Source of the DNA: Burkholderiales bacterium
GTDB lineage: Bacteria; Pseudomonadota; Gammaproteobacteria; Burkholderiales; SHXO01
Length of the DNA: 63,198 nt
NCBI GenBank assembly: GCA_036554965.1
Contig: DATBMG010000032.1
Span: 1 to 63,198 of the forward strand
Direction: 5' to 3'
Part shown: one piece after another, positions 3,482 through 37,193 of the stretch
How positions within the stretch are numbered: position 1 is the first letter of the stretch
How the letters are laid out: each line of letters opens with the position of its first letter
The notes under the pieces: model-generated
Told to the model about the DNA's origin: nothing
Seen by the model: the letters and a program-made list of their open reading frames with translations, nothing else
Database searches by the model: none
Made by a program: the position numbers and the translations under genes

Positions 3482-4840
3482 TTGTCGGCCAACTGGCGCA
3501 GTCCGGCGCTGGTCCTCACCGGCGCCGCGGCCATCCTCGCGCTCGGCCTCGGCCTGCGCCAGAGCTTCGCTCTGTTCCTGCCTGCGAACGCCGATCTGGG
3601 GTGGGCGCGCGGCGACTTCTCTTTCGCCTTGGCGGTGTCGACCCTCGTCTGGGGGCTGGCACAGCCGTTCTTCGGCGCGTGGGCCGACCAGAAGGGCGCC
3701 GGGCGGGTCGTCGCCGTCGGCGGTCTGCTGTTCGCCGCCGGCCTCGGGTCGATGCCGCTGGCGACCACGCCTCTGGCGCTGACGCTGAGCGCTGGGCTGA
3801 TGGTCGGCTTGGGGCTGGGCGCGACCGGCTTCGGAGTCATACTCGGCGTGGTGGGCCGCGCGTTCGCTCCCGAGCGACGCAGCGCAGCGCTCGGCATCGC
3901 ATCCTCAGGCGCGTCGTTCGGGCAATTCCTGGCGCTGCCGCTGGGGCCGCTCCTGACCTCGGCGCTGGGCTGGCAGGCCACGCTGTTGGTTCTGGCCGGC
4001 ATCGCTCTGGCGACTGTTCCGCTGGCCCTGGCAATGGTGGAGCCGCGTCCTCCTGTGGCTGCACCGGCCAACCGGCTCTCGCTCGTCGAGACGCTGCGCG
4101 AAGCCCGTGCTCACGCTGGGTTTCGCTATCTGACAGCCGGGTTCTTCGTATCCGGGGCCCAGATCGCGTTCATCCTCGGCCATCTGCCCGCCTATCTGCT
4201 GGAGGTGCGGATGACTCCGGGCGTGGGTGCGACGGCATTGGCGCTGATCGGGGCGTCCAGCATCGCCGGGTGCGTCGTCACCGGCTATCTGGGCGCGCGC
4301 CAGAGCAGGAAGGTTCTTCTGGCGGGGATTCACGTCCTGCGTGCGTTGCTCGTCGCCTTGTTCCTGGGACTCCCGGTGTCGCCGGCGACGGTATATCTGT
4401 TCGCCGCCGGCATCGGTTTCCTGTGGCTGGGCACCGTGCCGCTCGCGAGCGGCCTGGTGCTACAGCTGTTGGGCGCACGCTTCGCCTGCACGCTGCTCGG
4501 AGTTCTGTTCCTGGCTTATCAGCTCGGCGGCTTCGTGGGCATGTGGCTGGGAGGCCATTCGCTCGGCGTCGGCGGCTCGTACGATCCCGTGTGGGCCGGC
4601 GGCATGGCCTTGGGTGTTGTCGCAGCCATTCTCCATCTGCCCATCGACGAGCCGCCGCTCGAGCAGGCGGGCGCAGGCGAAGTGAGCCGCCGCGGCCGGC
4701 ATGCCGTGCCCTTGTGGATCGGCCTCGCCATCCTCTGTCCGGTGCTGGTCTTGCTCGCCTTGCGCGGTTATTACGCCCCGTCCGTGCTGATCGACTTCGC
4801 CAACATCAAGCTTTGCGCGCTTGCTGCCGTACCCACCTGA
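3482..4840 (+). CDS. MFS transporter
   Basis: 452-aa, roughly 12-TM hydrophobic protein with MFS-like loop motifs. TTG start as given by the ORF track. Confidence 0.75.
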   Translation: MSANWRSPALVLTGAAAILALGLGLRQSFALFLPANADLGWARGDFSFALAVSTLVWGLAQPFFGAWADQKGAGRVVAVGGLLFAAGLGSMPLATTPLALTLSAGLMVGLGLGATGFGVILGVVGRAFAPERRSAALGIASSGASFGQFLALPLGPLLTSALGWQATLLVLAGIALATVPLALAMVEPRPPVAAPANRLSLVETLREARAHAGFRYLTAGFFVSGAQIAFILGHLPAYLLEVRMTPGVGATALALIGASSIAGCVVTGYLGARQSRKVLLAGIHVLRALLVALFLGLPVSPATVYLFAAGIGFLWLGTVPLASGLVLQLLGARFACTLLGVLFLAYQLGGFVGMWLGGHSLGVGGSYDPVWAGGMALGVVAAILHLPIDEPPLEQAGAGEVSRRGRHAVPLWIGLAILCPVLVLLALRGYYAPSVLIDFANIKLCALAAVPT

Positions 4841-5106
4841 GTAGAAAGTCTTGACTCCGTGGGGTACACTCCGCCCTGAAGGGGAGGCACTCGCGAGGAG
4901 GTTGGTGCTTATCGCAGTGCAGGAAAAACGGACATGAGGTGGCCCGCACGAGCCTGGAGCGGGTGGCCGGGGTGGCCCGGGGTCGTTCAAGCCGGTCTGC
5001 GCTGCGCGAAAAGGGCCGTTCCTGCATCGCATCACCCACGGCCCGCGAGGTCCTGTCCAAGCAGTCCGGCTCGAAGCTCCGACCAATCAAAACCGAGGCC
5101 ACCGCT

Positions 5107-6459
5107 ATGGTCTTAGCAATCGTATTGGTTCTGCTGATCGTTGGCTCCCTCCTGTTTCACTTCCTGAGCCCGTGGTACTTCACGCCGATCGCCTCCAACT
5201 GGGGCATGATCGACACCACGGTGAACATCACGTTCTGGGTCACTGGGTTCGTCTTCGTCGCCGTCAACCTGTTCATGGTCTATTGCGTGGTGCGCTACCG
5301 CAACCGCAGGGGAGCCCGGGCGGAGTACGCGCCGGAGAACAAGAAGCTGGAGGGATGGCTCGTCGCAGTGACCACGGTCGGCGTGGTCGCCATGCTCGCG
5401 CCCGGCCTGTTCGTCTGGGCGAAATTCGTCGATCCGCCGGAAGACGCGGCGGTGGTAGAGGCTATAGGCCGGCAGTGGCATTGGTCCTATCGCTTCCCCG
5501 GGCAGGACGGCAAGCTGGGCACCGTCGATGCCCGCCACGTCAGCGACCAGAACCCGTTCGGCATGAACCCGGACGATCCCAACGGACGCGACGACATCCT
5601 GGTATCGAGCCCCGAGTTGCATCTGCCCGTGGGCAGGCCGGTCAAGGCGCTGCTGCGCTCCATCGACGTGCTGCACGACTTCGCCGTACCGCAGTTCCGC
5701 GTCAAGATGGATCTGGTGCCTGGACTGGTCACCTTCGTTTGGTTCGCGCCCACGCGCACCGGCAAATTCGACCTGCTGTGCGAGGAGCTGTGCGGCCTGG
5801 CGCACTACACCATGCGCGGCAAAGTCGTGGTGGAAGAGGAAGGCGCCTTTCAGGCGTGGTTGAGCAGCCATCCGACCTACGCGCAATCCTCGGCTCGAGT
5901 GTCCGGCGACGCCGAAGCAGGCAAGGCCCTCTACGCGGTGTGCGCCGCCTGTCATGGCGCCGAGGCGGAGGGCAACCCCGCGCTGCATGCGCCGAAGTTG
6001 AGCGGGCAGGCAGACTGGTACCTGAAACGCCAGTTGACCCATTTCAAGCAGGGGGCCCGCGGCGCGCACGAGCAGGACACTTATGGTAAACAGATGGCGC
6101 CGATGGCCGCCACGCTGGCCGACGAGGCGGCTGTCGACAACGTCGTGGCGTATGTCGCGACGCTGCCGGACAACCCCGCACCGGCGACGTTGCAGCAGTC
6201 CACCGCGAGGGGAAAGAAGCTGTACGTGAATTGTGCCGCGTGTCACGGTGCCGACGGACGCGGGATACAGGCGATGAACGCCCCGCGACTGGCGGGTATC
6301 AGCGATTGGTATCTGGTCACGCAGCTGAACAACTTCAAGCAGGGGATTCGCGGCGCGCATCCGCAGGACCTGTACGGCCCGCAGATGATGTCGATGGCCG
6401 CCAGTCTCACCGGCGAACGAGCAATCAGCGATCTGGTCGCCTACATCGGCAGCCTGTGA
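5107..6459 (+). CDS. coxM: Cytochrome c oxidase subunit II fused to a C-terminal diheme cytochrome c (alternative oxidase, CoxM-like)
   Basis: Two N-terminal TM helices, CuA site H...CEELCGLAHYTM, and two CAACHG heme-c motifs. Start at MVLAIVLVLL (ATG 5107). Confidence 0.9.
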   Translation: MVLAIVLVLLIVGSLLFHFLSPWYFTPIASNWGMIDTTVNITFWVTGFVFVAVNLFMVYCVVRYRNRRGARAEYAPENKKLEGWLVAVTTVGVVAMLAPGLFVWAKFVDPPEDAAVVEAIGRQWHWSYRFPGQDGKLGTVDARHVSDQNPFGMNPDDPNGRDDILVSSPELHLPVGRPVKALLRSIDVLHDFAVPQFRVKMDLVPGLVTFVWFAPTRTGKFDLLCEELCGLAHYTMRGKVVVEEEGAFQAWLSSHPTYAQSSARVSGDAEAGKALYAVCAACHGAEAEGNPALHAPKLSGQADWYLKRQLTHFKQGARGAHEQDTYGKQMAPMAATLADEAAVDNVVAYVATLPDNPAPATLQQSTARGKKLYVNCAACHGADGRGIQAMNAPRLAGISDWYLVTQLNNFKQGIRGAHPQDLYGPQMMSMAASLTGERAISDLVAYIGSL

Positions 6460-6534
6460 GCGGAGGTCTCGGAGGCCAGACGCGAACGGAATCGAGCAAG
6501 ACGAGCAGTTAGCGAGCGACGAGGAGATATTTAG

Positions 6535-8295
6535 ATGAGCTACGTTGCGCATGACGAATCGGCGTTCGTCCCTCCCGCCGAAGTCGAAGAGGTCGAGCTC
6601 TACCACCCGAAAACCTGGATCGGGAAGTATGTCTGGAGCCAGGACGCCAAGGTGATCGCCATCCAGTACGGGATCACCGCAATGGGGATCGGGCTGGTGG
6701 CCCTGGTGTTGTCGGGATTGATGCGCCTGCAACTGGGCTTCCCGCACACCTTCTCGTTCATCGATCCGGGCGCCTATCTCCAGTTCGTCACCATGCACGG
6801 CATGATCATGGTGATCTACCTGCTCACCGCGCTGTTCCTGGGCGGTTTCGGGAACTACCTGATTCCGCTGATGGTGGGCGCGCGCGACATGGTGTTCCCC
6901 TATGTGAACATGGTGAGCTACTGGGTCTATCTGTTCGCCGTGCTGCTGCTAGTGGCGAGCTTCTTCGTGCCCGGCGGGCCGACCGGCGCCGGCTGGACCC
7001 TGTACCCGCCCCAGGCCATCCTGGAGGGTACGCCGGGGGCGGATTGGGGAATCATCCTGATGCTCGTGTCCCTGGCCTTCTTCATCATCGGCTTCACCAT
7101 GGGCGGCCTGAACTACGTCGTGACGGTGCTGCAGGCGCGCACCCGAGGCATGACGCTGATGCGTCTGCCGTTGACGGTGTGGGGCATCTTCATGGCCACG
7201 ATCCTGGCGCTGCTGGCCTTCCCCGCGTTATTCGTGAGCGCCGTGATGATGACGCTGGACCAAGCGCTGGGCACCAGCTTCTTCATGCCGGCCCTGGTTT
7301 CGCAGGGGCAGCAGCTCGGCTATTCCGGCGGCAGCCCGGTGCTGTTCCAGCACCTGTTCTGGTTCTTCGGCCATCCCGAGGTCTACATCGTGGTGCTGCC
7401 CGCCTTCGGCATCGTCTCCGACCTGATCAGCATCCACGCCAGGAAGAACATCTTCGGCTATCGGATGATGGTGTGGGCGATCCTAGCCATCGGCGGCCTG
7501 AGCTTCATCGTCTGGGCGCACCACATGTACGTGAGCGGGATGGACCCGTACTTCGGATTCTTCTTCGCCACCACGACGTTGATCATCGCGGTGCCGACCG
7601 CCATCAAGGTCTACAACTGGGTGCTGACCCTGTGGCGCGGAAACATCCACCTCACCGTCCCGATGCTGTTCGCCATCGCCTTCGTATTCACCTTCATCAA
7701 CGGCGGATTGACCGGGTTGTTCCTGGGTAACGTGACCGTGGATCTGCCGCTATCCGACACCATGTTCGTGGTCGCCCATTTCCACATGGTGATGGCGGTG
7801 TCGCCGGTGCTGGCCGTGTTCGGGGCGATCTACCACTGGTACCCGAAGATCACCGGGCGCATGCTGGACGATACCCTGGGCAAGATCCACTTCTGGGTCA
7901 CCTTCATCGGCACCTATGCGATCTACTATCCGATGCACTATCTGGGTATCCTGGGCGTGCCGCGGCGCTACTACGCCGTCCAGAACCTGGACTTCGTCCC
8001 GCAATCGGCGCACGAGCTGAACGTCGCCATCACCATCGCCGCGCTGATCGTGGCGGCGGCACAGGTGGTGTTCCTGTACAACCTGGTGCGCAGCTACTTC
8101 GCGGGCAAGCCTGCGGGCGGCAACCCGTGGCGCGCCACCACGCTCGAATGGCAGACCCCCGACACCCCGCCGAAGCACGGTAATTTCGGCGACAAGCTGC
8201 CGGTGGTCTATCGCTGGGCTTACGACTACAGCGTACCGGGCGCCCCCGAGGACTTTATTCCGCAGAACCAGCCGCCCGTGCGCAAGCCGGCGTAG
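6535..8295 (+). CDS. coxN: Cytochrome c oxidase subunit I (alternative oxidase, CoxN-like)
   Basis: 586 aa with motifs GHPEVY, WAHHMY and VAHFH. Uninterrupted ORF. Confidence 0.92.
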   Translation: MSYVAHDESAFVPPAEVEEVELYHPKTWIGKYVWSQDAKVIAIQYGITAMGIGLVALVLSGLMRLQLGFPHTFSFIDPGAYLQFVTMHGMIMVIYLLTALFLGGFGNYLIPLMVGARDMVFPYVNMVSYWVYLFAVLLLVASFFVPGGPTGAGWTLYPPQAILEGTPGADWGIILMLVSLAFFIIGFTMGGLNYVVTVLQARTRGMTLMRLPLTVWGIFMATILALLAFPALFVSAVMMTLDQALGTSFFMPALVSQGQQLGYSGGSPVLFQHLFWFFGHPEVYIVVLPAFGIVSDLISIHARKNIFGYRMMVWAILAIGGLSFIVWAHHMYVSGMDPYFGFFFATTTLIIAVPTAIKVYNWVLTLWRGNIHLTVPMLFAIAFVFTFINGGLTGLFLGNVTVDLPLSDTMFVVAHFHMVMAVSPVLAVFGAIYHWYPKITGRMLDDTLGKIHFWVTFIGTYAIYYPMHYLGILGVPRRYYAVQNLDFVPQSAHELNVAITIAALIVAAAQVVFLYNLVRSYFAGKPAGGNPWRATTLEWQTPDTPPKHGNFGDKLPVVYRWAYDYSVPGAPEDFIPQNQPPVRKPA

Positions 8296-8351
8296 CCGCC
8301 CATGAACCAGCGTGAAGAGCCCATGAACCGGTGTAATGAGAAGGCGCGGCC

Positions 8352-9038
8352 ATGACCATCACCCTGCTGGTGCTCGCCGTGATCATGGCCGTCGTCGTCT
8401 GGTGGCTGTTGCGCCAGACGGTGAACGTCAGCCCCTGGGTCGAGCAACAATCGATTCAGGACGGTCCGGAAGGAGGCGCCGTCTCCCTGCCCCCGGTGAA
8501 GCTCGGGTTGGGTGTGTTTCTCGGGGTCGCGACATCTCTGTTCGTGCTGCTCATCAGCGCCTACTTCATGCGCATGATGGCCACGGACTGGATCGACCTG
8601 AGCGTTCCGCGCGTGCTGTGGCTGAACACCGCCGCCTTGATCCTGGCCAGCGTCGCGATGCAGTCGAGCGTGGCTGCGGCGCGACGCGCACAGGGCGACG
8701 CGGTGAGAATCGGCCTGATGGCGGCGGGCGGGTTCAGCTTCTTCTTTCTGCTCGGACAGCTGTGGGCGTGGCAGGAGCTCAATGCCGCGGGCTATTTCGC
8801 CACGTCCAATCCCGCCAATGCTTTCTTCTACCTGCTCACCGCGATGCACGGATTGCACCTGCTGGGCGGCCTGTGGGTCTGGTGCCGGACCACGGCCAAG
8901 GTGTGGCGCGGCGTCGAGGTCGCGAAGGTGCGGTTGAGCGTTGAGCTGTGCACCGTGTACTGGCACTACCTGCTCCTGGTCTGGCTGGTTCTGTTCGCGC
9001 TGCTGAGCTATCCCACGCAGTTCGCGTTGCATCGCTAG
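8352..9038 (+). CDS. coxO: Heme-copper oxidase subunit III family protein (CoxO-like)
   Basis: 228-aa polytopic protein with the subunit III-like C-terminal motif (YWHYLLLVW), located directly after coxN. Confidence 0.75.
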   Translation: MTITLLVLAVIMAVVVWWLLRQTVNVSPWVEQQSIQDGPEGGAVSLPPVKLGLGVFLGVATSLFVLLISAYFMRMMATDWIDLSVPRVLWLNTAALILASVAMQSSVAAARRAQGDAVRIGLMAAGGFSFFFLLGQLWAWQELNAAGYFATSNPANAFFYLLTAMHGLHLLGGLWVWCRTTAKVWRGVEVAKVRLSVELCTVYWHYLLLVWLVLFALLSYPTQFALHR

Positions 9039-9072
9039 GTGCCGTCGTCCACATGAAGGGGGGTCGAACAAC

Positions 9073-9789
9073 ATGACGCAACCCGCGCTGACGAGTGCGC
9101 AACAATTGCCCGCAGGCTTGCCGGGCGTCGTCGCCGACTGGTCCTCGGACCAGCGGGCATTCAAGAAGGTGCCCTGGTACAAGGCGATGATGTGGATCTT
9201 CCTGCTCAGCGACACGTTCATCTTCAGCTGCTTCCTGATCTCGTACATGACCGTGCGGGCATCCACCACGGAGCCTTGGCCGAACCCCAGCGAGGTGTTC
9301 GCCCTGACGATGTTCGGTCAGAAGATCCCCATGATCCTGATCGCCATCATGACCTTCGTCCTGATCAGCAGCAGCGGGACGATGGTCCTGGCCGTGAACT
9401 ACGGCTACCGCAAGGATCGCGTCAGGACGTTCATCTTCCTGCTGCTCACCGCGGCACTGGGCGCCACGTTCGTCGGGATGCAGGCGTTCGAGTGGACCAA
9501 GCTGATCATGGACGAGGGGGTGCGACCGTGGAGCAACCCCATGGGCGCGCCCCAGTTCGGCTCGAGCTTTTTCATGATCACCGGCTTCCACGGCACGCAC
9601 GTCTCGTTCGGCGTGCTGTTCCTGATCATCATAGCCATCAAGGTCCTGCGCGGCGATCTGGATAAGGAACGGCCGGGCTTCATGACCGGCAGGAAAGGCA
9701 ACTACGAGATCGTCGAGACCATGGGGCTGTACTGGCACTTCGTCGATCTGGTGTGGGTATTCATCTTCGCCGTCTTCTATCTCTGGTAG
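9073..9789 (+). CDS. coxP: Cytochrome c oxidase subunit III (CoxP-like)
   Basis: 238 aa with motifs ITGFHGTHV and YWHFVDLVW. Confidence 0.85.
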   Translation: MTQPALTSAQQLPAGLPGVVADWSSDQRAFKKVPWYKAMMWIFLLSDTFIFSCFLISYMTVRASTTEPWPNPSEVFALTMFGQKIPMILIAIMTFVLISSSGTMVLAVNYGYRKDRVRTFIFLLLTAALGATFVGMQAFEWTKLIMDEGVRPWSNPMGAPQFGSSFFMITGFHGTHVSFGVLFLIIIAIKVLRGDLDKERPGFMTGRKGNYEIVETMGLYWHFVDLVWVFIFAVFYLW

Positions 9790-9796
9790 GCAAACC

Positions 9797-10186
9797 ATGG
9801 CACACGCGCAAGGGCAACACGCGGCACACGCCGTAGGACAGCAAGAAAAACATGTGGAGGGCCAGCAGCATCCGCTCGGAATCTATCTCAAGATCTGGGG
9901 CTGGCTGTTCGTCCTCAGCGCCGCATCCTACGCAGTCGACTACTTCCACGTTCAGGGCTACCTGCGCTGGTTCCTGATCCTCACCTTCATGATGCTGAAG
10001 GCCGGACTGATCGTCGCGGTGTTCATGCACATGCTGTGGGAGCGGCTGGCCTTGGTCTACGCCATTCTGGTCCCGCCGCTGTTGTTGCTGGTACTGCTGG
10101 CGATCGGCGCGCTCGAAGCGGACTACACTTTCCTCACACGGGGGACGTTCTTCGGAGGGGTGTCCGAGGCGGCGCCGAAGCATTAG
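9797..10186 (+). CDS. Small cytochrome oxidase subunit IV-like membrane protein
   Basis: 129 aa, three TM helices, last gene of the coxMNOP-like operon. Confidence 0.6.
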   Translation: MAHAQGQHAAHAVGQQEKHVEGQQHPLGIYLKIWGWLFVLSAASYAVDYFHVQGYLRWFLILTFMMLKAGLIVAVFMHMLWERLALVYAILVPPLLLLVLLAIGALEADYTFLTRGTFFGGVSEAAPKH

Positions 10187-10908
10187 CGCCGGATGCCGCG
10201 CGGCGCCTTCCACCCTCTGACCAGCAGCGCCGCGTACGCGACAGCGATCAGCGCGCTCATCGCGAACCACTGCAAGGCGTAGGCGCGGTGCATGTCCGCG
10301 CCGGCGTCCAATCGCGGCCACGCGCGCAGCAGGCCGTCGGCCGCGTCGTTGCGCTGCTGCAACACGACGGACTGCAGCACCATCTTGTGGGCGGCGGCGA
10401 AACGCTCCGGATCCAGGTTCTGCCATACCGCGCCGCTCACGGTCCGTGAGGACAGCTCCAGGTAGCGCTTGCTCGGTGGCAACGCGATCCCCTCGACGCG
10501 CAGCCAGCCGGCGGGGGTGACCACCGCCGGCAGCTCCTGCCGGGTGCGCGGGGCCTTCACCCAGCCGCGGTTCACCAGCACGTGCAGGTGGCCCGGCGCC
10601 AGCCGCAAGGGTGTGATGACCTCATAGCCAACCCGGCCCTCGCGCACCCGGTTGTCGAGCAGGATGGTGAACTCGGGCCGAAACTCGCCGTGCGCTTCCA
10701 CGCGCTGATACGCGAGCGTGTCGGCCGGCACCGGCTCCGACGGCAAGTGCACCGGCGGGCGCTGCTGCGCCAGATCCATGCGCTGCTGCAGCGCCAGCTT
10801 TTCGGCCGCGCGGTCTAGCTGCCAGCTGCCGAGCCAGGCGGTGACGGCCACGCCGACGGCCGCGGCGAGCGCCGGCAACAGGCGCGTGTTCGCAAAGGAG
10901 CGGCGCAT
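10183..10908 (-). CDS. SURF1 family cytochrome oxidase assembly protein
   Basis: 241 aa with a TM helix at each end and the WQLDR motif. Its stop overlaps the convergent coxQ-like stop by 4 nt. Confidence 0.85.
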   Translation of the reverse strand: MRRSFANTRLLPALAAAVGVAVTAWLGSWQLDRAAEKLALQQRMDLAQQRPPVHLPSEPVPADTLAYQRVEAHGEFRPEFTILLDNRVREGRVGYEVITPLRLAPGHLHVLVNRGWVKAPRTRQELPAVVTPAGWLRVEGIALPPSKRYLELSSRTVSGAVWQNLDPERFAAAHKMVLQSVVLQQRNDAADGLLRAWPRLDAGADMHRAYALQWFAMSALIAVAYAALLVRGWKAPRGIRR

Positions 10909-10936
10909 CCGCTAGACTCCGTTCGGGCGCAGCGCC

Positions 10937-11134
10937 ATGAGAGTCCTCGTCCTCCTGTTCCTCGCCGTGATCCTCGCCAGCCTCGGCTCGGCGCTGTACT
11001 ACATGATTCGCGACAAAGGGCATTCCCAGCGTACCGTGAGGGCCCTCACCGTGCGCATCGCGCTGTCGATCGCGCTGTTCGTCCTGCTGATAGTGGGCTA
11101 CGCCACCGGCATCATCCCGCGGGGCGGGCTTTGA
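10937..11134 (+). CDS. Twin-TM small protein (DUF2909 family)
   Basis: 65 aa, two TM helices, in the classic position between SURF1 and ctaE. Confidence 0.65.
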   Translation: MRVLVLLFLAVILASLGSALYYMIRDKGHSQRTVRALTVRIALSIALFVLLIVGYATGIIPRGGL

Positions 11135-11249
11135 TCGGCTGCAGGAAATAGCGGCGCTGCCCCTGCCGTCGTTGCCGTTCGCGATCGCTTGAGTGCGGTG
11201 CCTTGCCTGGTCCGCCTGCTGCGGGCCCTCCCGCACTCGAGCGGTCCCG

Positions 11250-12104
11250 TTACAACCAGTACACCAGGACGAACAACAGCAGCCAGACCACGTCCACGAA
11301 GTGCCAGTACCAGGAAACCGCCTCGAAGCCGAAGTGATGCTCGGGTTTGAAGTGGCCGCGCAGCGCGCGGAAGAAGATCACGATCAGCATGATCGTGCCG
11401 AGCGTGACGTGCAGGCCATGGAAGCCGGTGAGCAGGAAGAAGGTCGCGCCGTAGGCCCCGGTGCCGAGCGTCAGGCCGAGCTCGCTGTAGGCGTGCGCGT
11501 ACTCATAGGCTTGCAGCGCGAGGAACAGGCAGCCCAGCACGACGGTCAGGAACAAGCCGACCTTGAGCTGCCTGCGGTCGCCCAGCTTGAGCCCCCAGTG
11601 CGCCCAGGTCACGGTGGCGCCCGAGAACAGCAGGATCAGCGTGTTGATCGCCGGAATGCCCAAGGCCCCCATCGGGGTGAAGGGCTCGGTCAGGCCGGGA
11701 CCCGAGACCGGCCACCCGGCCTCGAAGTTCTGCCACAGCAGGGCTCCGGTGTCGCCTTCGCCGAGCCAGGGGACCGACAGCACGCGCATGTAGAACAGCG
11801 CGCCGAAGAAGGCGGCGAAGAACATCACTTCGGAGAAGATGAACCAGCCCATCGCCCAGCGGAAGGAGAGGTCCACCTGGCTGTTGAACTTGCCCGCCTC
11901 GCTCTCGCGGATGACCGTGCCGAACCAGCCGGACAGCATGTAGATCAGCAGGCCCGCGCCACCCGCCAGCGGCCACCAGCCGGAGACCGAGTCGTTCAAC
12001 AGCAGCACGGTGCCGAAGGCGATCAAGAACAGCGCGCTGGAACCGACCACCGGCCAATGCGACGGTGCCGGCACGTAGTAGCGGCTGGAATCGGTGCTCG
12101 CCAT
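11250..12104 (-). CDS. ctaE: Cytochrome c oxidase subunit III (aa3-type)
   Basis: 284 aa with motifs TGFHGLHV and SWYWHFVDVVW. Confidence 0.92.
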   Translation of the reverse strand: MASTDSSRYYVPAPSHWPVVGSSALFLIAFGTVLLLNDSVSGWWPLAGGAGLLIYMLSGWFGTVIRESEAGKFNSQVDLSFRWAMGWFIFSEVMFFAAFFGALFYMRVLSVPWLGEGDTGALLWQNFEAGWPVSGPGLTEPFTPMGALGIPAINTLILLFSGATVTWAHWGLKLGDRRQLKVGLFLTVVLGCLFLALQAYEYAHAYSELGLTLGTGAYGATFFLLTGFHGLHVTLGTIMLIVIFFRALRGHFKPEHHFGFEAVSWYWHFVDVVWLLLFVLVYWL

Positions 12105-12158
12105 GGTTGCCCCTCCTATCGCTGGGCTACTTCGGGGTGTTGGATCGGCCGCTGCCCG

Positions 12159-12434
12159 TCACACGATCAGGTTCACCAGCGTCACCAGGATGATCACAAA
12201 CAGGGCCGCGGCGATGACGCCCGCCACGATCACGTGGACCGGCTTCAGGCTCGCCAGGTCCCGATCACCCGCGCTTCTCCTGCGGATGCCGATGAACGCG
12301 CCGAGCACCGCCGATATCGCCCGCAGCGGCGAGGCCCTGCGGGTGCGCTGTTCCCGCGTCGACTGCGGGCTTTTCGGCATCGACCCGGCCGTGGTCACTT
12401 CTCCCACGCGCCTGTGCGAATCGAACGGCGCCAT
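12159..12434 (-). CDS. DUF2970 family small membrane protein
   Basis: C-terminal single TM helix (VIVAGVIAAALFVIILV), in the conserved position between ctaG and ctaE. Start uncertain; an internal MPKSPQS is possible. Confidence 0.6.
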   Translation of the reverse strand: MAPFDSHRRVGEVTTAGSMPKSPQSTREQRTRRASPLRAISAVLGAFIGIRRRSAGDRDLASLKPVHVIVAGVIAAALFVIILVTLVNLIV

Positions 12435-12438
12435 TGCG

Positions 12439-12993
12439 TCAGCTCGCTCCCGACCCTGCGCCCTGCGCCAGCTGAAAGAAGGTATAGGACAGCGTGATCA
12501 CGGTCACGTCGCGCGGCAGCTGCGGATCCACCACGAACTGCACCGGCATCTGCCGGGTCTCGTTGCCCTGCAACTCCTGCCGCGCGAAGCAGAAGCACTC
12601 GATCTTCTTGAGGTATTGCGCCGCCGCCTGCGGACCGTAGCTCGGGATGGCTTGCCCCAGCACCGGCGCGTCGCTGGTGTTGCGCACCTCGTAGAGCACC
12701 TGGATCACCTCCCCCGGGTGTGCACGCACGCTCTTCTGCAGCGGCCGGAACTCCCAGGGCAGTCCGCGCGTGTTGGCGTCGAACTCGATGGTGAGCAGAC
12801 GGCTCTCGTCGATCTGCGTGTTGCGCACCGCGTCGGGTCCGTCCAGGTTGTAGATGCCGGTGGTCTCGCAGATCTTCTCGTAGATCGGCACCAGTGCGAA
12901 ACCGAACGCGAACATTCCCGCCGCAACGACGACCAGCTTGCGCAGCAGTTGCCGGTTGGCGTGCGCCACAGTCATCGACCGGGTCGGGTTCAC
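12439..12993 (-). CDS. ctaG: Cytochrome c oxidase assembly protein CtaG/Cox11 (CuB insertion)
   Basis: 184 aa with an N-terminal TM helix and the CFCF copper motif (KKIECFCFARQ). GTG start overlaps the upstream stop (GTGA). Confidence 0.9.
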   Translation of the reverse strand: MNPTRSMTVAHANRQLLRKLVVVAAGMFAFGFALVPIYEKICETTGIYNLDGPDAVRNTQIDESRLLTIEFDANTRGLPWEFRPLQKSVRAHPGEVIQVLYEVRNTSDAPVLGQAIPSYGPQAAAQYLKKIECFCFARQELQGNETRQMPVQFVVDPQLPRDVTVITLSYTFFQLAQGAGSGAS

Positions 12994-13124
12994 TGGTACA
13001 GGCGCCGCAGCAGGAAGCCGAGGAGGAAAGCCGCCGCGATCGACGCCAGGATCAACGCGGTGCGTAGGTTTCGCGCGCGGACCCTGTCGCCGTCGCTCCG
13101 CATCGTGCCCGCCATCTGTCTCAT
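12990..13124 (-). CDS. Small single-TM protein between ctaD and ctaG (possible cytochrome oxidase small assembly protein)
   Basis: 44 codons (MRQMAGTMRSDGDRVRARNLRTALILASIAAAFLLGFLLRRLYQ*), translationally coupled to ctaG. Called from position and TM character only. Confidence 0.45.
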   Translation of the reverse strand: MRQMAGTMRSDGDRVRARNLRTALILASIAAAFLLGFLLRRLYQ

Positions 13125-13138
13125 CTCAGTCGCGCCTA

Positions 13139-14722
13139 TCAACGGATGAGCGGAGGCGTCTCGAAGCTGTGGTAGGGAGGCGGCGATGGCAGCGCGGTCC
13201 ACTCCAGGCTGTCGGCGCCTTCCCACGGCCTCTGCGCGGCCTTCTTGCCGCTGCGGATGGTCTTCAGCACGATGTACAGGAACAGCAGCTGCGACACTCC
13301 GAAGCCGAAGGCGCCGATGCTCGAGATCGCGTTGAACTCGACGAACTGCAGCGCGTAGTCGGGAATGCGCCGCGGCATGCCAGCGAGCCCGGAGAAGTGC
13401 TGCACGAAAAAGGTCACGTTGAAGAACACGAACGACAGCCAGAAGTGCAGCTTGCCGAGCGTCTCGTCGTACATCCTGCCGGTCCACTTGGGCAGCCAGA
13501 AGTAGATGCCGCCGAAGGCCGAGAACAGGGCGCCTGCCACCATCACGTAGTGGAAGTGCGCGACCACGTAATAGGTGTCGTGCAGCTGCACGTCCAGCGG
13601 GGCGATCGACAGCACCAGGCCGGTGAAGCCGCCCAGGGTGAACAGGAACAGGAAGCCGATGGCGAACAGCATCGGCGTCTCGAAGCTGAGCGAGCCCTTC
13701 CACATGGTCGCCACCCAGTTGAACACCTTCACTCCGGTCGGGACCGCGATCAGCATGGTGGCGAACATGAAATAGAGCTGCGCCTGCACCGGCATGCCCA
13801 CCGTGTACATGTGGTGCGCCCACACCAGGAACGACAGGATGGCGATAGAGGCGGTGGCGTACACCATCGAAGCGTAGCCGAACAACGGCTTGCGCGAGAA
13901 CGCCGGCACGATCTGCGAGATCACGCCGAAGGCCGGGATGGCGATGATGTAGACCTCCGGGTGGCCGAAGAACCAGAAGATGTGCTGGAACAGCACCGGG
14001 TCGCCGCCACCCGCGGGGTTGAAGAAGTGCGTGCCCAGATGACGGTCGGTGAGCAGCATGGTGACGGCGCCGGCGAGCACCGGCATCACCGCGATCAGCA
14101 GGTAGGCGGTGATCAGCCAGGTCCAGCAGAACATCGGCATCCGCATCAGCGTCATGCCGGGGGCGCGCATGTTCAGCAGCGTGGTGATGATGTTGATCTA
14201 GCCCATGATCGAGGACACGCCCAGAATGTGCACCGCGAAGATGGTCAGGTCCATGCTCAGGCCCTGCTGAACGGTGAGCGGGGGGTAGAGCGTCCAGCCC
14301 ACGCCGGCGCCGCCGCCCGGGGCGAACTGGGCCAGGATCAGCAGCAGGGCGGCCGGCGGCAGCAGCCAGAAGCTCCAGTTGTTGAGCCGCGGAAAGGCCA
14401 TGTCCGGCGCGCCGATCTGCATCGGGATCAGCCAGTTGGCGAACCCCACGAAGGCCGGCATGATGGCCCCGAAGACCATGACCAGCCCGTGATAGGTGGT
14501 CATGCTGTTGAAGAACTCGGGCTCGGTGACCTGCAAGCCGGGCTCGAACAGCTCGGCGCGGATCACCAGGGCCATGACCCCCCCGAGGATGAACATCGAG
14601 AACGAGAACCACAAGTACATCGTGCCGATGTCTTTGTGGTTGGTGGTGGTGAGCCAGCGCATCAGCCCGGAAGGGGCGTGATCGTGCCCGTGGTCGTGCG
14701 CGTAGCCGTGTGCCGCTTCCAT
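13139..14722 (-). pseudogene. ctaD: Cytochrome c oxidase subunit I (aa3-type CtaD) interrupted by an in-frame TAG at 14198-14200
   Basis: ORFs 14198-14722 and 13139-14170 are in the same frame. Together they read ...[28 protein letters not shown]..., so the stop sits at the conserved Ala of the GAINFITT motif. The rest is intact (GHPEVY, WAHHMY, VAHFHY). Confidence 0.85.
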
Positions 14723-14783
14723 CTGTCGCTTCTCCCGCTCGCCTTGCGTTTCTCGGACCTCGTCGGCCGGCGCCTCGCGCCGG

Positions 14784-15839
14784 CTACCTCGACTGCGCCA
14801 CCATGTACGCGACGGCCGCCCTCACCTGCTGGTCCGACAGTCCGGGATTGCCGCCCTTGGGCGGCATCATGCGGATCCCCTTGAGCGCGTTCTGCATCAG
14901 CGTCGCTTCGCCGCGCGCGATGCGCGGCGCCCAGGCTGCTTTGTCGCCGGTCCTTGGCGCGCCGGCCAGTCCGGCCGCGTGGCACGCCTGACAGATCTGC
15001 TCATATGTGCCCTTGCCGTCGGCCGGCTCCGCGGCGGCCGCTGCGTCCCCGACAACTGCAGCCTGCATGGACTTCTGCTCCGCCACCCACTGGTCGAACT
15101 CGCGCTGGGTCACGGCGCGCACCACGATGGGCATGAAGGCGTGCTCCTTGCCGCACAGCTCGGCGCACTGGCCGCGGTAGACGCCGGGCTCCTCGGCACG
15201 GAACCAAGCGTCGCGCACGAAGCCGGGAATCGCATCCTGCTTCACCGCCAGCGCGGGTACGTACCAGGCGTGCAGGACGTCGGCCGCGGTGGTCAGGATG
15301 CGCACCTTCTTGCGCACCGGCACCACCAGCTCGCGGTCCACCTCGAGCAGATAGTGCTCGCCCTTGGGCTCACGGTTGTCGATCTGGGCGCGCGGGGTGG
15401 CGAGGTTGCTGTAGAAGCTCACCCCTTCCTGCAGATAGTCGTAATGCCACTTCCACTGGTAGCCGGTGGCCTTGATGGTTAGGTCGGGGGCCGAGGCGTC
15501 GCGCTGATCGAGCAGCGTCTTGGTGGCGGGCCAGGCCATGCCGAGCAGGATCAAGAAGGGGATCACCGTCCAGATCATCTCGACGGTGGTGTTCTCGTGG
15601 AACAGCGCCGCCTGGTGCCCGACCGACTTGCGGTGCCTCCAGATGGCGTAGAACATCGCGCCGAACACCGCGACGAAGATCACCAGACAGATCAGCACGA
15701 CGGCGTTGTGCAGATCGTAGATGGCGTGACCGACCGCGGTCTTCTGGTCCTGCAGCCCGAGCCTCCACTCCCCCGAGGCGAGGCCCGCCCACAGCGACAG
15801 CAGCGCGCCCGCCAGAGCGTGGGCGGCTTTTCTAGTCAT
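14784..15839 (-). CDS. ctaC: Cytochrome c oxidase subunit II with a C-terminal monoheme cytochrome c
   Basis: 351 aa with a signal peptide, two TM helices, CuA site CAELCGKEHAFM and one CQACH motif. Start at MTRKAAHAL (ATG 15837-15839). Confidence 0.92.
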   Translation of the reverse strand: MTRKAAHALAGALLSLWAGLASGEWRLGLQDQKTAVGHAIYDLHNAVVLICLVIFVAVFGAMFYAIWRHRKSVGHQAALFHENTTVEMIWTVIPFLILLGMAWPATKTLLDQRDASAPDLTIKATGYQWKWHYDYLQEGVSFYSNLATPRAQIDNREPKGEHYLLEVDRELVVPVRKKVRILTTAADVLHAWYVPALAVKQDAIPGFVRDAWFRAEEPGVYRGQCAELCGKEHAFMPIVVRAVTQREFDQWVAEQKSMQAAVVGDAAAAAEPADGKGTYEQICQACHAAGLAGAPRTGDKAAWAPRIARGEATLMQNALKGIRMMPPKGGNPGLSDQQVRAAVAYMVAQSR

Positions 15840-15985
15840 GGTTTGGGGATTGTTCCTGCGCGCAACCGGCAGATGGCTCTGCGGCTCCGCGACATCGGCA
15901 AGTTGCATTGCTTCCCAGGCCCCGATCGCTCCCGGGATCGAGCGGGTCCTCCTCGTGGGCCGGCAATTTAGCATAGCGGCGAGGA

Positions 15986-16867
15986 TCAAGGCAAGGCGCG
16001 CGGCTGCACGCGGATCACCGCGCGCCCGTCTTCGGTCACGCGCGGTCCCTGCTGCGGCTTCCACGCGTGGCCGTACACGATCTCGAAGGTCACCGGGAGG
16101 CGTCCCTCGCGCCGCTGCGGCTCGTAGCCCTGTTCCAGCTGGCGCAGCCAGCCGCGGCCGCGCAGCCCCGCGTCGCCGGCGCTTGCGGCGTTGCTGCAGC
16201 CGCTGGCGCGCAGCTCGCGCGCCAGCGCGGCAAAGTCGGAGAACGTGAGCGTCATGCGCTCCATGTCCATGACCGGATCGGCATAGCCCGCCCGCACCAG
16301 CAGATCGCCGGTATCGTGCATGTCGGCGAAAGCATGCACCCTGGCGGCCCCGCGATGCGCGGTGCGCAGCTCGCGCAGCGTGTCCGGGCCGAGCGTGCTG
16401 AACATCAGCAGCCCACCGCGCGTGAGCACCCGCAACCACTCGCGCAACGCCCGCTCCGGCCGCGCGGCCCATTCCAGGGCGAAGTTGGAGCAGATCAGGT
16501 CCACGCAGGCGGCGCGCAGCGGCAGGCGCTCGAAATCGCCGCACACGGACCACAGCGGGCGCCCGCGCCCCGTCAGACGCGACCACCATGAGCGCGGCGC
16601 CCGGCCGCGGCGCAGCATCGCGAGCGAGAAGTCGAGCGCCACGACGCGCGCGCCGGGATAGCGGGCCGCGAGCGCGCGCGCCATGTGACCGGTGCCGCTG
16701 CCCGCGTCGAGGATGGTGCGCGGCTGCAACTTGACCAGTTCGAGCCGCTCGAGCAGGCGCGCGCAGATCTCGCGCTGGAGCACGGCGGCGCTGTCGTACG
16801 TGGCGGCGGCGCGCTCGAAATGCAGCCGTGCGCGGCGCTTGCTGATGCCGGGTGGTGGTGGATCCAT
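15986..16867 (-). CDS. bioC: Malonyl-ACP O-methyltransferase BioC-like class I SAM methyltransferase
   Basis: 293 aa with FERAAATYDSAAVLQREI and the LDAGSGTG motif, divergent from comF as in many proteobacteria. Confidence 0.75.
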   Translation of the reverse strand: MDPPPPGISKRRARLHFERAAATYDSAAVLQREICARLLERLELVKLQPRTILDAGSGTGHMARALAARYPGARVVALDFSLAMLRRGRAPRSWWSRLTGRGRPLWSVCGDFERLPLRAACVDLICSNFALEWAARPERALREWLRVLTRGGLLMFSTLGPDTLRELRTAHRGAARVHAFADMHDTGDLLVRAGYADPVMDMERMTLTFSDFAALARELRASGCSNAASAGDAGLRGRGWLRQLEQGYEPQRREGRLPVTFEIVYGHAWKPQQGPRVTEDGRAVIRVQPRALP

Positions 16868-16939
16868 GGCAGGTGCTGCGGCTTTCGGGTTTATGCTTGA
16901 GCCTGCGTCCAGCGTCAATAGAGCGCTCGCCCTGCCCAC

Positions 16940-17641
16940 ATGGCTTCCCATCCGCTGCTGTCGGCCGCACTGCGCGCGCTGTTGCCCGAGCGCTGCGTGT
17001 TCTGCGGCGCCCGCGCACAGGCCGGAGAAGTCTGCGGCGATTGCCTGCGGGATCTGCCGGGCCGCGGCCGCGAGCGCTGTCGCGTGTGCGCGATTCCCAT
17101 CGCCGGCGCGCAGGTATGCGGCCACTGCCTGCGCGATCCGCCGTCCTATTCGCACAGCGTCGCCGCGGCGGACTACCGTTTTCCGCTGGACGCGGCCATC
17201 GCCAGGCTCAAGTACGGACCGGACCTGAGTCTGCTCGCGCCGCTTGCCCATCTGCTGGCGCGCGCCGTGCGCGACCAGCCGGCGCCCGATATGCTCATCC
17301 CGATGCCGCTGTCGGCCGCCGGCCTGCGCGCGCGCGGCTTCAATCAGGCCGCCGAGCTGGCGCGCTTGGTCGCGCGCGAAGTCCGAGCACCGCTGTCGCT
17401 CACCGCGGCGACGCGCTGCAAGGACACGGCGCCGCAGGCCTCGCTGCCGTTCGATCGGCGTGCGGGCAACGTGCATGGCGTCTTCGCCTGCGGGGCACCG
17501 GTAGCCGGGTTGCGGGTAGCGCTGCTCGACGACGTGATGACCACCGGCGCGACCGTGGAGGAGCTGGCGCGCACACTGCGGCGGGCGGGCGCGGCGGACG
17601 TCGGCGTGTGGGTGCTCGCCCGCACGCCGCGGCCGGATTGA
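16940..17641 (+). CDS. comF: ComF family protein (phosphoribosyltransferase domain)
   Basis: N-terminal double CxxC zinc finger (CVFCG...CGDC; CRVC...CGHC) and a C-terminal PRTase motif (LLDDVMTTGAT). Confidence 0.85.
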   Translation: MASHPLLSAALRALLPERCVFCGARAQAGEVCGDCLRDLPGRGRERCRVCAIPIAGAQVCGHCLRDPPSYSHSVAAADYRFPLDAAIARLKYGPDLSLLAPLAHLLARAVRDQPAPDMLIPMPLSAAGLRARGFNQAAELARLVAREVRAPLSLTAATRCKDTAPQASLPFDRRAGNVHGVFACGAPVAGLRVALLDDVMTTGATVEELARTLRRAGAADVGVWVLARTPRPD

Positions 17642-34466: not shown

Positions 34467-34781
34467 CGGACGGGTCTTGCGTGCGAATCCCCTCCGACAG
34501 CGCCCGTGCAGCCGCCCGTGATTGAGATCCGATGCGCCAGGTTAGCAGACCTGCGCAACTACGGCGCGAGGTCCGCTCGAAGCGGAGCCGCACGCCCATC
34601 ACTCGCAGATCAACAACGATTCACGGCAGCGCGCCGCCGCATCCAAGCAACGCCGGCACCCGTATCACGCGGAGCAGGCGGCCTGGAGAACGCGGATCCG
34701 GCCCTGGCCACCTTGCCGCGCCCGCACGCTCCCCGCGGCCGCGCACCGCACGCCGGCCGCATCCTTTCACGGAGAAGTGCA

Positions 34782-35042
34782 ATGGATACTCCCAAGCTTG
34801 CCCTTGCGGCCGCGGCTGCGGCGCTGTTCATCGCCGGGTGTACCACCCAGGGCGGCGGCAGCACGATGCAGACGGCGGACGCCGGAACGGTGAAGGTGAA
34901 GTGCTATGGCGCCAACGCCTGCAAGGGCCAGGCCGAGTGCAAGACGGCGATGAACGAGTGCAAGGGCCACAACGCCTGCAAGGGCAAGGGCTTCTTGAGC
35001 ATGACCGAGAAGGACTGCGTGGATCGCCTCGGACGCGCTTGA
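34782..35042 (+). CDS. Cys-rich secreted RiPP precursor of the bufferin type (BufA-like), with a lipobox
   Basis: GGAGAAG SD, then ATG. The 86-aa product starts [20 protein letters not shown] (IAGC lipobox). The core [40 protein letters not shown] has six Cys. It lies immediately upstream of the MNIO/DUF2063 pair. Confidence 0.8.
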
Positions 35043-35050
35043 GGCGTGGC

Positions 35051-35090
35051 GGGAAGCCGGTCGTGCCCGCCGGCTTCCCGCTCTTTTCTC
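35051..35090 (+). terminator. Intra-operon hairpin plus T-tract between the precursor and the MNIO gene (candidate attenuator/partial terminator)
   Basis: Perfect 10-bp stem gggaagccgg / ccggcttccc (35051-35060 and 35070-35079), 9-nt loop, then gctcttttctc. Confidence 0.6.
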
Positions 35091-35092
35091 GT

Positions 35093-35977
35093 ATGCGCCG
35101 AGACGCACTCTTGCCGGACCGCACGGCCCCGCCGCCGGACCGAGGATTGACCTTGCCGAGCGCGGGCTTCGGCCTGGGGCTGCGCACCGCACACTACGAA
35201 GCGATCGCGGCTGAACGGCCCGCGGTCGACTGGTTCGAGATCCTGACCGAGAACTACCTGGTGCCCGGCGGGCGGCCCCTGCAATGGCTGGACCGGATCG
35301 GCGCCGACTATCCGCTCGCCATGCACGGCGTGTCGCTGTCGGTCGGCAGCACCGATCCCCTCGACCTCGACTATCTGCGCGCGGTGAAGGCGTTGGCGCA
35401 GCGCGTCGCCCCGCTGTGGATCTCCGATCATCTGTGCTGGACCGGCGTGGCCGGCAAGAATCTGCACGACCTGCTGCCGTTGCCCTACACCGAACCGGCG
35501 CTGCGCCACGTGGTGGCGCGCGTTCAGGCGGCGCAGGAGTTGCTGGGGCAGCGCATCCTGCTGGAGAACGTCTCCAGTTACGTGGAGTTCAAGGATGCCG
35601 AGATGACCGAGTGGGAGTTCCTGGCGCAGGTGGCGCGGCAGGCCGACTGCCTGATCCTGCTGGACGTCAACAACATATATGTCAGCGCCTGCAACCATGG
35701 CTTCGCGGCCGACAACTACCTAACCGGCATCCCGGCCGAGCGCGTGCAGCAGATTCATCTGGCGGGACACAGTCATTGCGGCGAGTACATCATCGACACC
35801 CATGACGCGCCCGTGGCCGACCCGGTGTGGGCGCTGTACGAGCGCGCGGTCGGGCGCCTGGGCCCGGTGGCCACCATGATCGAGCGCGACGATCGCATTC
35901 CTCCGCTGGCGGAGTTGCTGGCCGAGCTCGAGCGGGCGCGCGCGCTCGGCGCCCGTGTGCAGGCCAGGCAGGCATGA
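35093..35977 (+). CDS. MNIO family (DUF692) multinuclear non-heme iron oxidative enzyme, BufB-like
   Basis: Motifs [52 protein letters not shown] and IHLAGHS. Start is ATG 35093, or in-frame TTG 35153, which has a better SD (GAGGA). Confidence 0.88.
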
Positions 35978-36753
35978 GCCTCCGCGCTTTGCAGGATGCC
36001 TTCCAAGCGTACGTGTTGCACGGGGCGGCACCGATCCGCGAGCGCGTCGCGCCGGGACCGCTGCACAACGCCGAGCGGCGCCTGCGGATCTACTACGACG
36101 CCTATCGGCTGCGGCTGATCGAGGCGCTCGCCAGCGATTACGAGACGCTGCGCGCCGCGCTGGGCGAGGAGGCGTTCCGGACTGCGGCCTTGGCGTACGT
36201 GCAAGCGAATATGTCGCAGTGGCGCAACGTGCGCTGGTACGGTGCGCGGCTACCGGACTTCCTGCGCGACACCGCGCCGTGGAGCGACCGCGTCTGGCTC
36301 AGCGACATCGCGCACTTCGAGTGGACGCTGACGCTGGCTTTCGATGCCGCGGACGCGTCCCGCCTGACCTTCGCCGAGCTCGCCACGCTGCCGCCCGAGG
36401 CGTGGGCGGCGCTCGCCTTCCGGCTGCACCCGTCCGTGCATCTGCTGCGGCTGTCGAGCAACGCCCCGGCGATGCGCAAGGCGGTGGACGCGGGCGCCGC
36501 ACTTCCCGCCATCGAGACCTACGATTCGCCCGTCGAGTGGCTCGTCTGGCGCAACAGCCTTACCGTGTCTTTTCGCTCGCTGCCGGTCGCGGAGCGCTAC
36601 GCCCTCGTCGCGGCGCAGCGCGCCAAGAGCTTCCCGGCGATCTGCGAAGGCATCTGCGCGTTCGTCCCTGCCGACGAAGCGCCTGCGCTCGCCGCCGGCT
36701 GGCTGCGCACCTGGGTGGACGACGGGTTGATCAGCGCAGCGCTGCTGCCCTAG
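35974..36753 (+). CDS. DUF2063 family protein (MNIO partner/precursor-recognition subunit, BufC-like)
   Basis: 259 aa with [10 protein letters not shown] and [21 protein letters not shown] overlap with the MNIO gene. Confidence 0.85.
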
Positions 36754-37193
36754 TCTTCCTGCAGCAGCGGTCGCACCTCGGCGCTGACCGGCACCTCCAC
36801 GCGCTTGCCGGCCTGCTCGACGATCAGAGTCAGCGCCACGCGCTCGCCCGGCTTGAGCGGCTTGGCAATATCGAACAGCATCACGTGGAAGCCGCCCGGC
36901 TCGAGCTTCACCGTCCGGTTCGCAGGCAGGTCGAGCGCTTCGACCTTGCGCATCTTCATCACGCCCCCGGCGTGGCTCATCTCGTGCACTTCCGCCGCTG
37001 CTGCGGCGCGGCTGCGCACACCCACCAGGCGCGATGCGCGATCGGCCTTGAGCAGCATGTAGACGCCGGCCACCTTCTGGCCCGGCATGGTGGCGCGCGC
37101 CCAGGCCTCGCTCACCTCCACCGCGGCGCGCACGCCGCCGGCGACCAGCCACAGGGCCACCGCCGAAGCGGCAAGTGCATGTCGTGCTTTCAT
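36750..37193 (-). CDS. Periplasmic copper chaperone PCu(A)C (DUF461)
   Basis: 147 aa with a signal peptide and the H(M)x10Mx21HxM-type motif (EVHEMSHAGGVMKM...GGFHVML). Its stop overlaps the bufC-like stop through a shared CTAG. Confidence 0.88.
   Translation of the reverse strand: MKARHALAASAVALWLVAGGVRAAVEVSEAWARATMPGQKVAGVYMLLKADRASRLVGVRSRAAAAAEVHEMSHAGGVMKMRKVEALDLPANRTVKLEPGGFHVMLFDIAKPLKPGERVALTLIVEQAGKRVEVPVSAEVRPLLQED

Follow-up and report, generated by a model that had tools for sequence, protein, structure and literature searches.

Bufferins, modified peptides that buffer copper, make up a very large family described only recently, and what they protect depends on their location within the envelope; with a lipid anchor, a chelator that could otherwise diffuse through the periplasm would be fixed in place, probably at the outer membrane. 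In Buf2 of Caulobacter vibrioides, the four central cysteines carry a -4 Da modification (5-thiooxazoles) and a CysI-CysVI disulfide is probable (Leprevost et al., PNAS 2024, PMC11626156). Both Buf1 and Buf2 of that organism are cut at an ordinary site and are soluble (PMC11626156), which agrees with the statement of a first-pass annotation of the DNA described below that characterised bufferins use SPase I-type signals. Passages on bufferin precursors in Antoine et al. (Microb Genom 2025, PMC12452194) report that a lipoprotein signal peptide is predicted for ~16% of Buf2 bufferins, already suggest membrane anchoring after Sec export for Buf2 precursors with a lipobox, and mention tandem and orphan precursors; a pairing of anchored with soluble forms does not appear in those passages. 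Two lipobox-bearing peptides of other types, lipo-DybAH and lipo-NedABC, have been isolated from E. coli in triacylated form, carrying their MNIO modifications and a lipobox cysteine that the MNIO had left unmodified, and the same study lists bufferins among the RiPP-lipoprotein families with SPII examples (PNAS 2026, PMC13056109). The idea of a lipobox bufferin is thus not new: the class has been predicted (PMC12452194), and NedA shows that a triacylated, MNIO-modified copper peptide exists (PMC13056109), while no bench evidence for any lipo-bufferin of the BufA2 type was found in the literature searched. Since lipoprotein-type Buf2 precursors are already in print, the locus presented here is mainly another, well-conserved example.

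The locus lies in a stretch of 63,198 nucleotides from a Burkholderiales bacterium (contig DATBMG010000032.1 of assembly GCA_036554965.1; hereafter the window). The precursor gene, bufA2 (34782-35042, + strand, stop included), runs from an ATG at 34782 to a TGA at 35040-35042 and encodes 86 amino acids; a ribosome-binding site, GGAGAA (34769-34774, +), is read 7 nt 5' of the start codon, and homologues begin at an equivalent methionine (M-[DE]-T-S-K...). Residues 6-84 match the NCBIfam profile NF050166 ("BufA2 family periplasmic bufferin-type metallophore") at 83 bits, where the cut-off is 60, confirming the product as a BufA2/Buf2 (BUF_6/12Cys) bufferin precursor. When the whole 3.7-Mb genome (96.6% complete) was searched with this profile, bufA2 was the sole match (82.2 bits), and its nearest public relatives come from MAGs of uncultured Burkholderiales/Betaproteobacteria. 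The core peptide (residues 37-86; 34890-35039, +) carries six cysteines, C41, C47, C53, C60, C66 and C79, which are invariant in both of our alignments (A1 and A2) and are arranged as C41-YGANA-C47-KGQAE-C53-KTAMNE-C60-KGHNA-C66, followed by C79-VDRLGRA at the C-terminal end. By alignment with characterised Buf2, C47, C53, C60 and C66 would become 5-thiooxazoles and C41 would be disulfide-bridged to C79. An AF2 model built from a 35-sequence alignment reached a mean pLDDT of 47; a second, built from 50 sequences (mean pLDDT 55, lowest confidence at residues 23-31), adopts the strand-strand-helix layout described for bufferins and places C41 on a strand (38-42) and C79 in a helix (76-83), both at low confidence, a predicted placement compatible with the C41-C79 disulfide.

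Downstream of bufA2 lies a strong terminator-like hairpin (35048-35082; 14 pairs, 10 of them G-C) with a T-rich tail, the whole element spanning 35048-35092 (+) between bufA2 and bufB; judged from its sequence, it is probably a partial terminator that limits read-through and raises the precursor transcript over those of the enzymes. The MNIO maturase gene bufB (35153-35977, +) starts at a TTG with GAGGA 6 nt upstream and is identified by NF050167 (387 bits, cut-off 310) and PF05114 (371 bits), while bufC (35974-36753, +), encoding the DUF2063 partner (PF09836, 71.6 bits), begins at an ATG that overlaps the bufB stop (ATGA). The NF050167 profile begins at residue 6 of BufB, which has neither a signal peptide nor an N-terminal extension; this absence of a signal peptide indicates that cysteine modification would take place in the cytoplasm, before export. 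The three genes are co-directional and the gene past bufC encodes a PCu(A)C protein rather than DoxX, the linkage expected of a buf2-type cluster. An oxazolin (Buf_EGKCG, HvfA-type) identity was considered and ruled out, as a search of the bufA2 sequence found no EGKCG motif and the oxazolin enzyme models fall below their cut-offs on the neighbouring genes (HvfB on bufB, 268 bits versus 360; HvfC on bufC, 28 bits versus 142).

Inspection of the BufA2 N-terminus bears out the proposal of the first-pass annotation that the signal peptide ends in a canonical SPase II lipobox. The predicted signal peptide (residues 1-19; 34782-34838, +) comprises an n-region, MDTPK, and an Ala/Leu-rich h-region, and leads into I17-A18-G19-C20 (34830-34841, +), in which Cys20, encoded by TGT at 34839-34841, is the predicted site of diacylglyceryl and N-acyl attachment after an LspA cut at G19/C20. 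Three pattern rules are matched, namely the strict lipobox [LVI][ASTVI][GAS]C, the PROSITE PS51257-type rule and the G+LPPv2 pattern; as lipoprotein criteria we took a lipobox following an uncharged h-region, a cysteine located between positions 15 and 35, and an n-region with a basic residue, and BufA2 has IAGC, the cysteine at position 20 and K5, in an n-region that is weakly basic (one Lys, one Asp). Cys20, in the context I-A-G-C-T-T, is a seventh cysteine that lies outside the repeated N-x-C-K-G sites of the core. An [ILV]-A-G-C box is kept in 117 of the 121 closest homologues (65-89% identity; IAGC in 56, VAGC in 30 and LAGC in 21), and the four exceptions consist of one truncated call and three real variants in which the cysteine is replaced by Thr or Pro. 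The lipobox reading stood to fall if Cys20 varied among orthologues; it proved 98% conserved among the aligned sequences, on par with the six core cysteines. The h-region is likewise strongly conserved, and mean column entropy is 0.46 bits in the lipobox (residues 16-20) and 0.65 bits in the core, as compared with 1.70 bits in the linker (residues 21-36). Across 13 loci for which DNA was compared, moreover, the codons of L-F-x-A-G-C vary synonymously (TGT in 10 and TGC in 3; GGC, GGT, GGA or GGG; GCA, GCC or GCG) while the residues stay constant, which indicates purifying selection on the motif. The lipobox is, by these sequence measures, more than a chance cysteine, and assignment of the signal peptide to the SPase II (lipoprotein) type is well supported.

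Related genomes provide a counterpart that lacks the lipobox. A lipobox precursor lies directly upstream of bufB-bufC in the sister MAG loci L002, L003, L005-L011, L014 and L022, and both lipobox and soluble BufA2 forms are present in about half of the sister MAGs (~9/18). The second, non-lipobox gene (for example, MNRNRRLMGAALATAAAALFVTGVPTMA/ADDGG…) is found divergently upstream in L007 and L022, past bufC in L003 and L010, and on another contig of the same MAG in four cases (L009/L012, L014/L016, L006/L020 and L027/L019, the lipobox gene of L027 being frameshifted); in L002, a second non-lipobox gene stands in tandem and has a signal peptide of a different type from those of the other soluble paralogues. 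Soluble paralogues were located in L012, L013, L015, L016, L018, L020, L022 (~3917-4204), L010 (4402-4650), L003 (~6200-6440) and L007 (3608-3438). Their cores are up to 84% identical to those of the lipobox forms, so that the two sets offer a clean natural comparison for the contribution of an anchor. The soluble paralogues have an A-x-A-type cleavage region and, in their n-region, two adjacent arginines (N-R-R-[LI]-x-G); this pair is never seen in the lipobox forms and might direct Tat export. No soluble paralogue was found by the NF050166 search of the window's own genome, which holds the anchored form only. The orphan soluble paralogue of L012 is flanked by genes for Usp, a GlpD-like FAD oxidoreductase and a GFO/IDH/MocA oxidoreductase, none of them copper-related. 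In one MAG, MFD02242.bin.2.195 (L027, 4001-4212 and downstream), lipobox bufA2, bufB, bufC and dacC are all split into several frames, most likely through assembly indel errors rather than decay of the cluster.

These comparisons bear on whether Cys20 is lipidated at all. I-A-G/C is also compatible with the -3/-1 rule of SPase I, so that a product which is soluble and begins with a cysteine is formally conceivable: a cut by SPase I (at G19/C20, for example), or escape from Lgt, would leave an unlipidated BufA2 whose seventh cysteine served as a thiol, metal ligand or disulfide partner. Characterised bufferins are soluble, and the cysteine has been lost in natural variants of the same clade (P0083, P0088, P0099 and the second gene of L002), losses which imply that anchoring is dispensable in some lineages; these variants look like a third BufA2 type, a lipobox form minus the cysteine and part of the tether that follows it. 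It is the entire L-F-[ILV]-A-G-C box, however, and not the cysteine alone, that is conserved, and this box matches the Lgt/LspA consensus, whereas in the soluble paralogues the c-region is of another kind, with A-x-A-type sites (…PTMA/ADD…), and the tether is missing. The complete lipoprotein machinery in the host and the triacylation of lipobox-bearing MNIO peptides in E. coli (PMC13056109) likewise speak against an unlipidated product, which we regard as very unlikely; lipidation is the best reading of the BufA2 N-terminus.

The lipobox is not confined to the closest relatives. A lipobox precedes the core in 47 (31%) of 150 sequences representing 50%-identity clusters of relatives, a sample biased towards the query; 13-Cys two-domain forms are among the 47. 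On a tree of 107 core domains, the distribution of the lipobox needs 18 changes, as compared with 27.9 in shuffles, on the basis of 55 usable columns and with 2 of 104 branches well supported. A count of independent lipobox gains on this tree was dropped in view of that branch support, and a single origin is possible.

The host genome encodes each enzyme needed for lipidation and the carrier for subsequent transport, with every profile match above its curated cut-off: Lgt (TIGR00544, 285 bits), LspA (TIGR00077, 132 bits), Lnt (TIGR00546, 308 bits) and LolA (TIGR00547, 245 bits). A crude scan of the genome for lipoprotein N-termini gave 169 candidates, among which LAGC and LAAC are the most frequent boxes and IAGC occurs four times, a contaminated list that serves for qualitative use only; of the inspected candidates with Asp or Glu at +2, most turned out to be spurious frames or cytoplasmic enzymes. 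Owing to this contamination, the list was replaced by profile-defined lipoproteins of the RND adaptor and outer-membrane-factor families. Inner-membrane RND adaptors of the host (n=5) read C/GKKE, C/SDSK, C/DRSA, C/GKSE and C/GPKQ after the lipid cysteine, in which the G-K-S type is presumably a retention signal like that of MexA in Pseudomonas, and NodT-type outer-membrane factors (n=2) read C/TVGP and C/ALKS. BufA2 reads C/TTQG, with no Asp at +2 and no Lys+3/Ser+4, and in this sample of five adaptors and two outer-membrane factors its C/TTQ is unlike the former and resembles the latter. Within the clade, the +2 residue is A in 80 members, S in 18, T in 7, K in 5, Q in 4, G in 2 and N in 1, and Asp at +2 was found in none of the 117 clade members and none of the 47 diverse lipobox relatives. 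To our knowledge, rules for Lol avoidance are poorly defined beyond Enterobacteria and Pseudomonas and are not established for Burkholderiales. The lack of a retention-type signal after Cys20 favours Lol-dependent transfer, and the outer membrane appears, from this small set of sequences, a more likely destination for BufA2 than the inner membrane.

This tendency runs counter to a further proposal of the first-pass annotation, that anchoring keeps the copper-binding module next to membrane cuproenzymes, which are inner-membrane oxidases. A lipidated BufA2 retained in the inner membrane would hold its copper domain beside these enzymes and their assembly factors, and some of the gene content of the window invites the idea. 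Two haem-copper oxidase clusters, at 4939-12104 and 10183-17018, lie 20-28 kb upstream of the buf cluster together with SURF1, and a gene for a periplasmic PCu(A)C copper chaperone (36750-37193, - strand; PF04314, 120.7 bits) converges on bufC with overlapping stop codons; the absence of established Lol-avoidance rules in Burkholderiales also leaves room for retention. The oxidase genes are distant, with unrelated genes between, however, and the PCu(A)C adjacency, although retained at six loci of closely related MAGs (L002, L005, L008, L009, L011 and L027), is lineage synteny that dacC shares and is absent at the distant buf2 loci compared. Neither the oxidase clusters nor this adjacency supports a specific role in copper hand-over, and a functional link between PCu(A)C and the bufferin was dropped from consideration, the adjacency being limited to close relatives and shared with the unrelated dacC. 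Given also the uniform lack of Asp+2 and a C/TTQ sequence that departs from the host adaptors (C/GK[KS]E, C/SDSK, C/DRSA) in the direction of the outer-membrane factors, we consider inner-membrane retention unlikely, and the placement beside cuproenzymes was not upheld.

As to the oxidase clusters themselves, each encodes COX1, COX3 and a COX2 fused to a cytochrome c domain. The COX1 gene of the minus-strand cluster (13139-14722, -) is broken by a single in-frame TAG (14198-14200, -; …GVSSIMG*INIITT…) at a position that we take to be normally Ala, which may reflect an error in the MAG assembly, pseudogene formation or another cause.

Between Cys20 and the core, residues 21-36 (34842-34889, +) form a stretch rich in Gly, Thr, Ser and Ala that varies in both sequence and length, with 17-23 residues separating Cys20 from the first core cysteine across the clade. 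The same annotation had taken this stretch for a Gly/Thr-rich flexible tether, and the sequence is in keeping with the suggestion: the composition is as described, the stretch is variable (1.70 bits), and some 10 of its residues (C-x-x-G-G...) are missing from soluble paralogues whose cores are near-identical (alignment A2). Among 136 diverse relatives, the median number of residues past the lipid cysteine is 18 in lipobox forms, as compared with ~16 past the h-region in soluble forms, a figure that still counts the signal peptide c-region (p = 0.006); the difference in length is thus real but modest. As the AF2 model is too weak to prove a disordered segment, the flexible-tether reading, which is a reasonable one, draws on the variability of the sequence.

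The otherwise variable tether closes with a conserved A-D-[AS]-G (A32-D33-A34-G35; 34875-34886), in which A32, D33 and G35 are conserved at 91%, 96% and 84%, respectively. In the alignment, this motif falls in the region where the soluble paralogues have their SPase I site (…MA/ADD…), and it may be a vestige of an SPase I site, a recognition element for BufC or a secondary processing site. The last of these options would allow a different fate for the peptide, in which lipidated, outer-membrane BufA2 were released by a cut at A-D-[AS]-G, or else became surface-exposed or were shed in OMVs, so that the anchor acted as a device for transit or export and not as a lasting tether. Conservation of A32-D33 and G35 within a variable linker, together with their alignment to a cleavage region, is in keeping with release, and a location at the surface or in OMVs has been proposed for lipo-DybAH and lipo-NedABC (PMC13056109). 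A BufC recognition site or the fold would account for A-D-x-G equally well, however; no protease gene is linked to the buf cluster, and surface-export signals are not known for this lineage. We accordingly see only a very slim chance that the anchor is a device of transit.

Taken together, the evidence makes it likely that BufA2 is the precursor of a Sec-exported, lipoprotein-type bufferin that is lipidated, anchored in the outer membrane and employed to sequester copper. In the cytoplasm, BufB (MNIO) and BufC (DUF2063) would convert C47, C53, C60 and C66 to 5-thiooxazoles and leave Cys20 untouched, after which the precursor would be exported by Sec. Lgt would then place diacylglycerol on Cys20, LspA would cut at G19/C20, and Lnt would N-acylate the new N-terminus, whereupon LolCDE and LolA would hand the triacylated peptide to the outer membrane. 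The end product would be a 50-residue, putatively copper-binding domain held in the periplasm on a flexible tether of ~16 residues, with a probable C41-C79 disulfide, and we infer that it would serve to sequester excess envelope copper locally, as soluble bufferins do. Viewed across the lineage, the sister MAGs raise the prospect of a bufferin divided between two compartments, with an outer-membrane-anchored, maturase-linked form and a soluble Arg-Arg paralogue, of which the organism of the window keeps the anchored form alone; we put this forward as a doubtful, speculative extension. Were it true, the anchored form would be sufficient by itself, and the site of copper capture in the envelope would be set by the anchor, perhaps along with the neighbouring PCu(A)C chaperone.

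Three sets of described systems come closest to BufA2 of the window. Buf2 of Caulobacter vibrioides (BufA2 CCNA_03001, with BufB2/BufC2; PMC11626156) shares with it the NF050166 match, six core cysteines, the MNIO and DUF2063 enzymes, Sec export and, as we infer, a role in copper stress; the Caulobacter peptide, however, undergoes an ordinary signal-peptidase cut and is soluble in the periplasm, whereas BufA2 of the window has a seventh cysteine in a lipobox and a tether of ~16 residues. Lipo-NedABC of Neisseria dentiae (oxazolin/EGKCG type) and lipo-DybAH (chryseobasin type) resemble BufA2 in combining an SPII signal with cytoplasmic MNIO modification of core cysteines, and in these peptides the lipobox cysteine stays free and is then triacylated by Lgt, LspA and Lnt (PMC13056109), a lipidation that for BufA2 is predicted. 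Their cores differ from that of BufA2, consisting either of EGKCG repeats served by HvfBC-type enzymes or of a CPACGMG macrocycle (PMC13056109). The lipobox Buf2 precursors already in print, as far as they are described in the passages concerned of PMC12452194, belong to the same class as that of the window, with a six-Cys core, bufB and bufC without doxX, and a lipobox signal peptide, and show no essential difference from it; anchoring is stated in those passages as a one-line prediction without an analysis of sorting. Relative to those passages, the possible additions made here are a clade of uncultured Burkholderiales in which the lipobox form is the one linked to the maturase and, in sister MAGs, the frequent presence of a soluble paralogue beside it.
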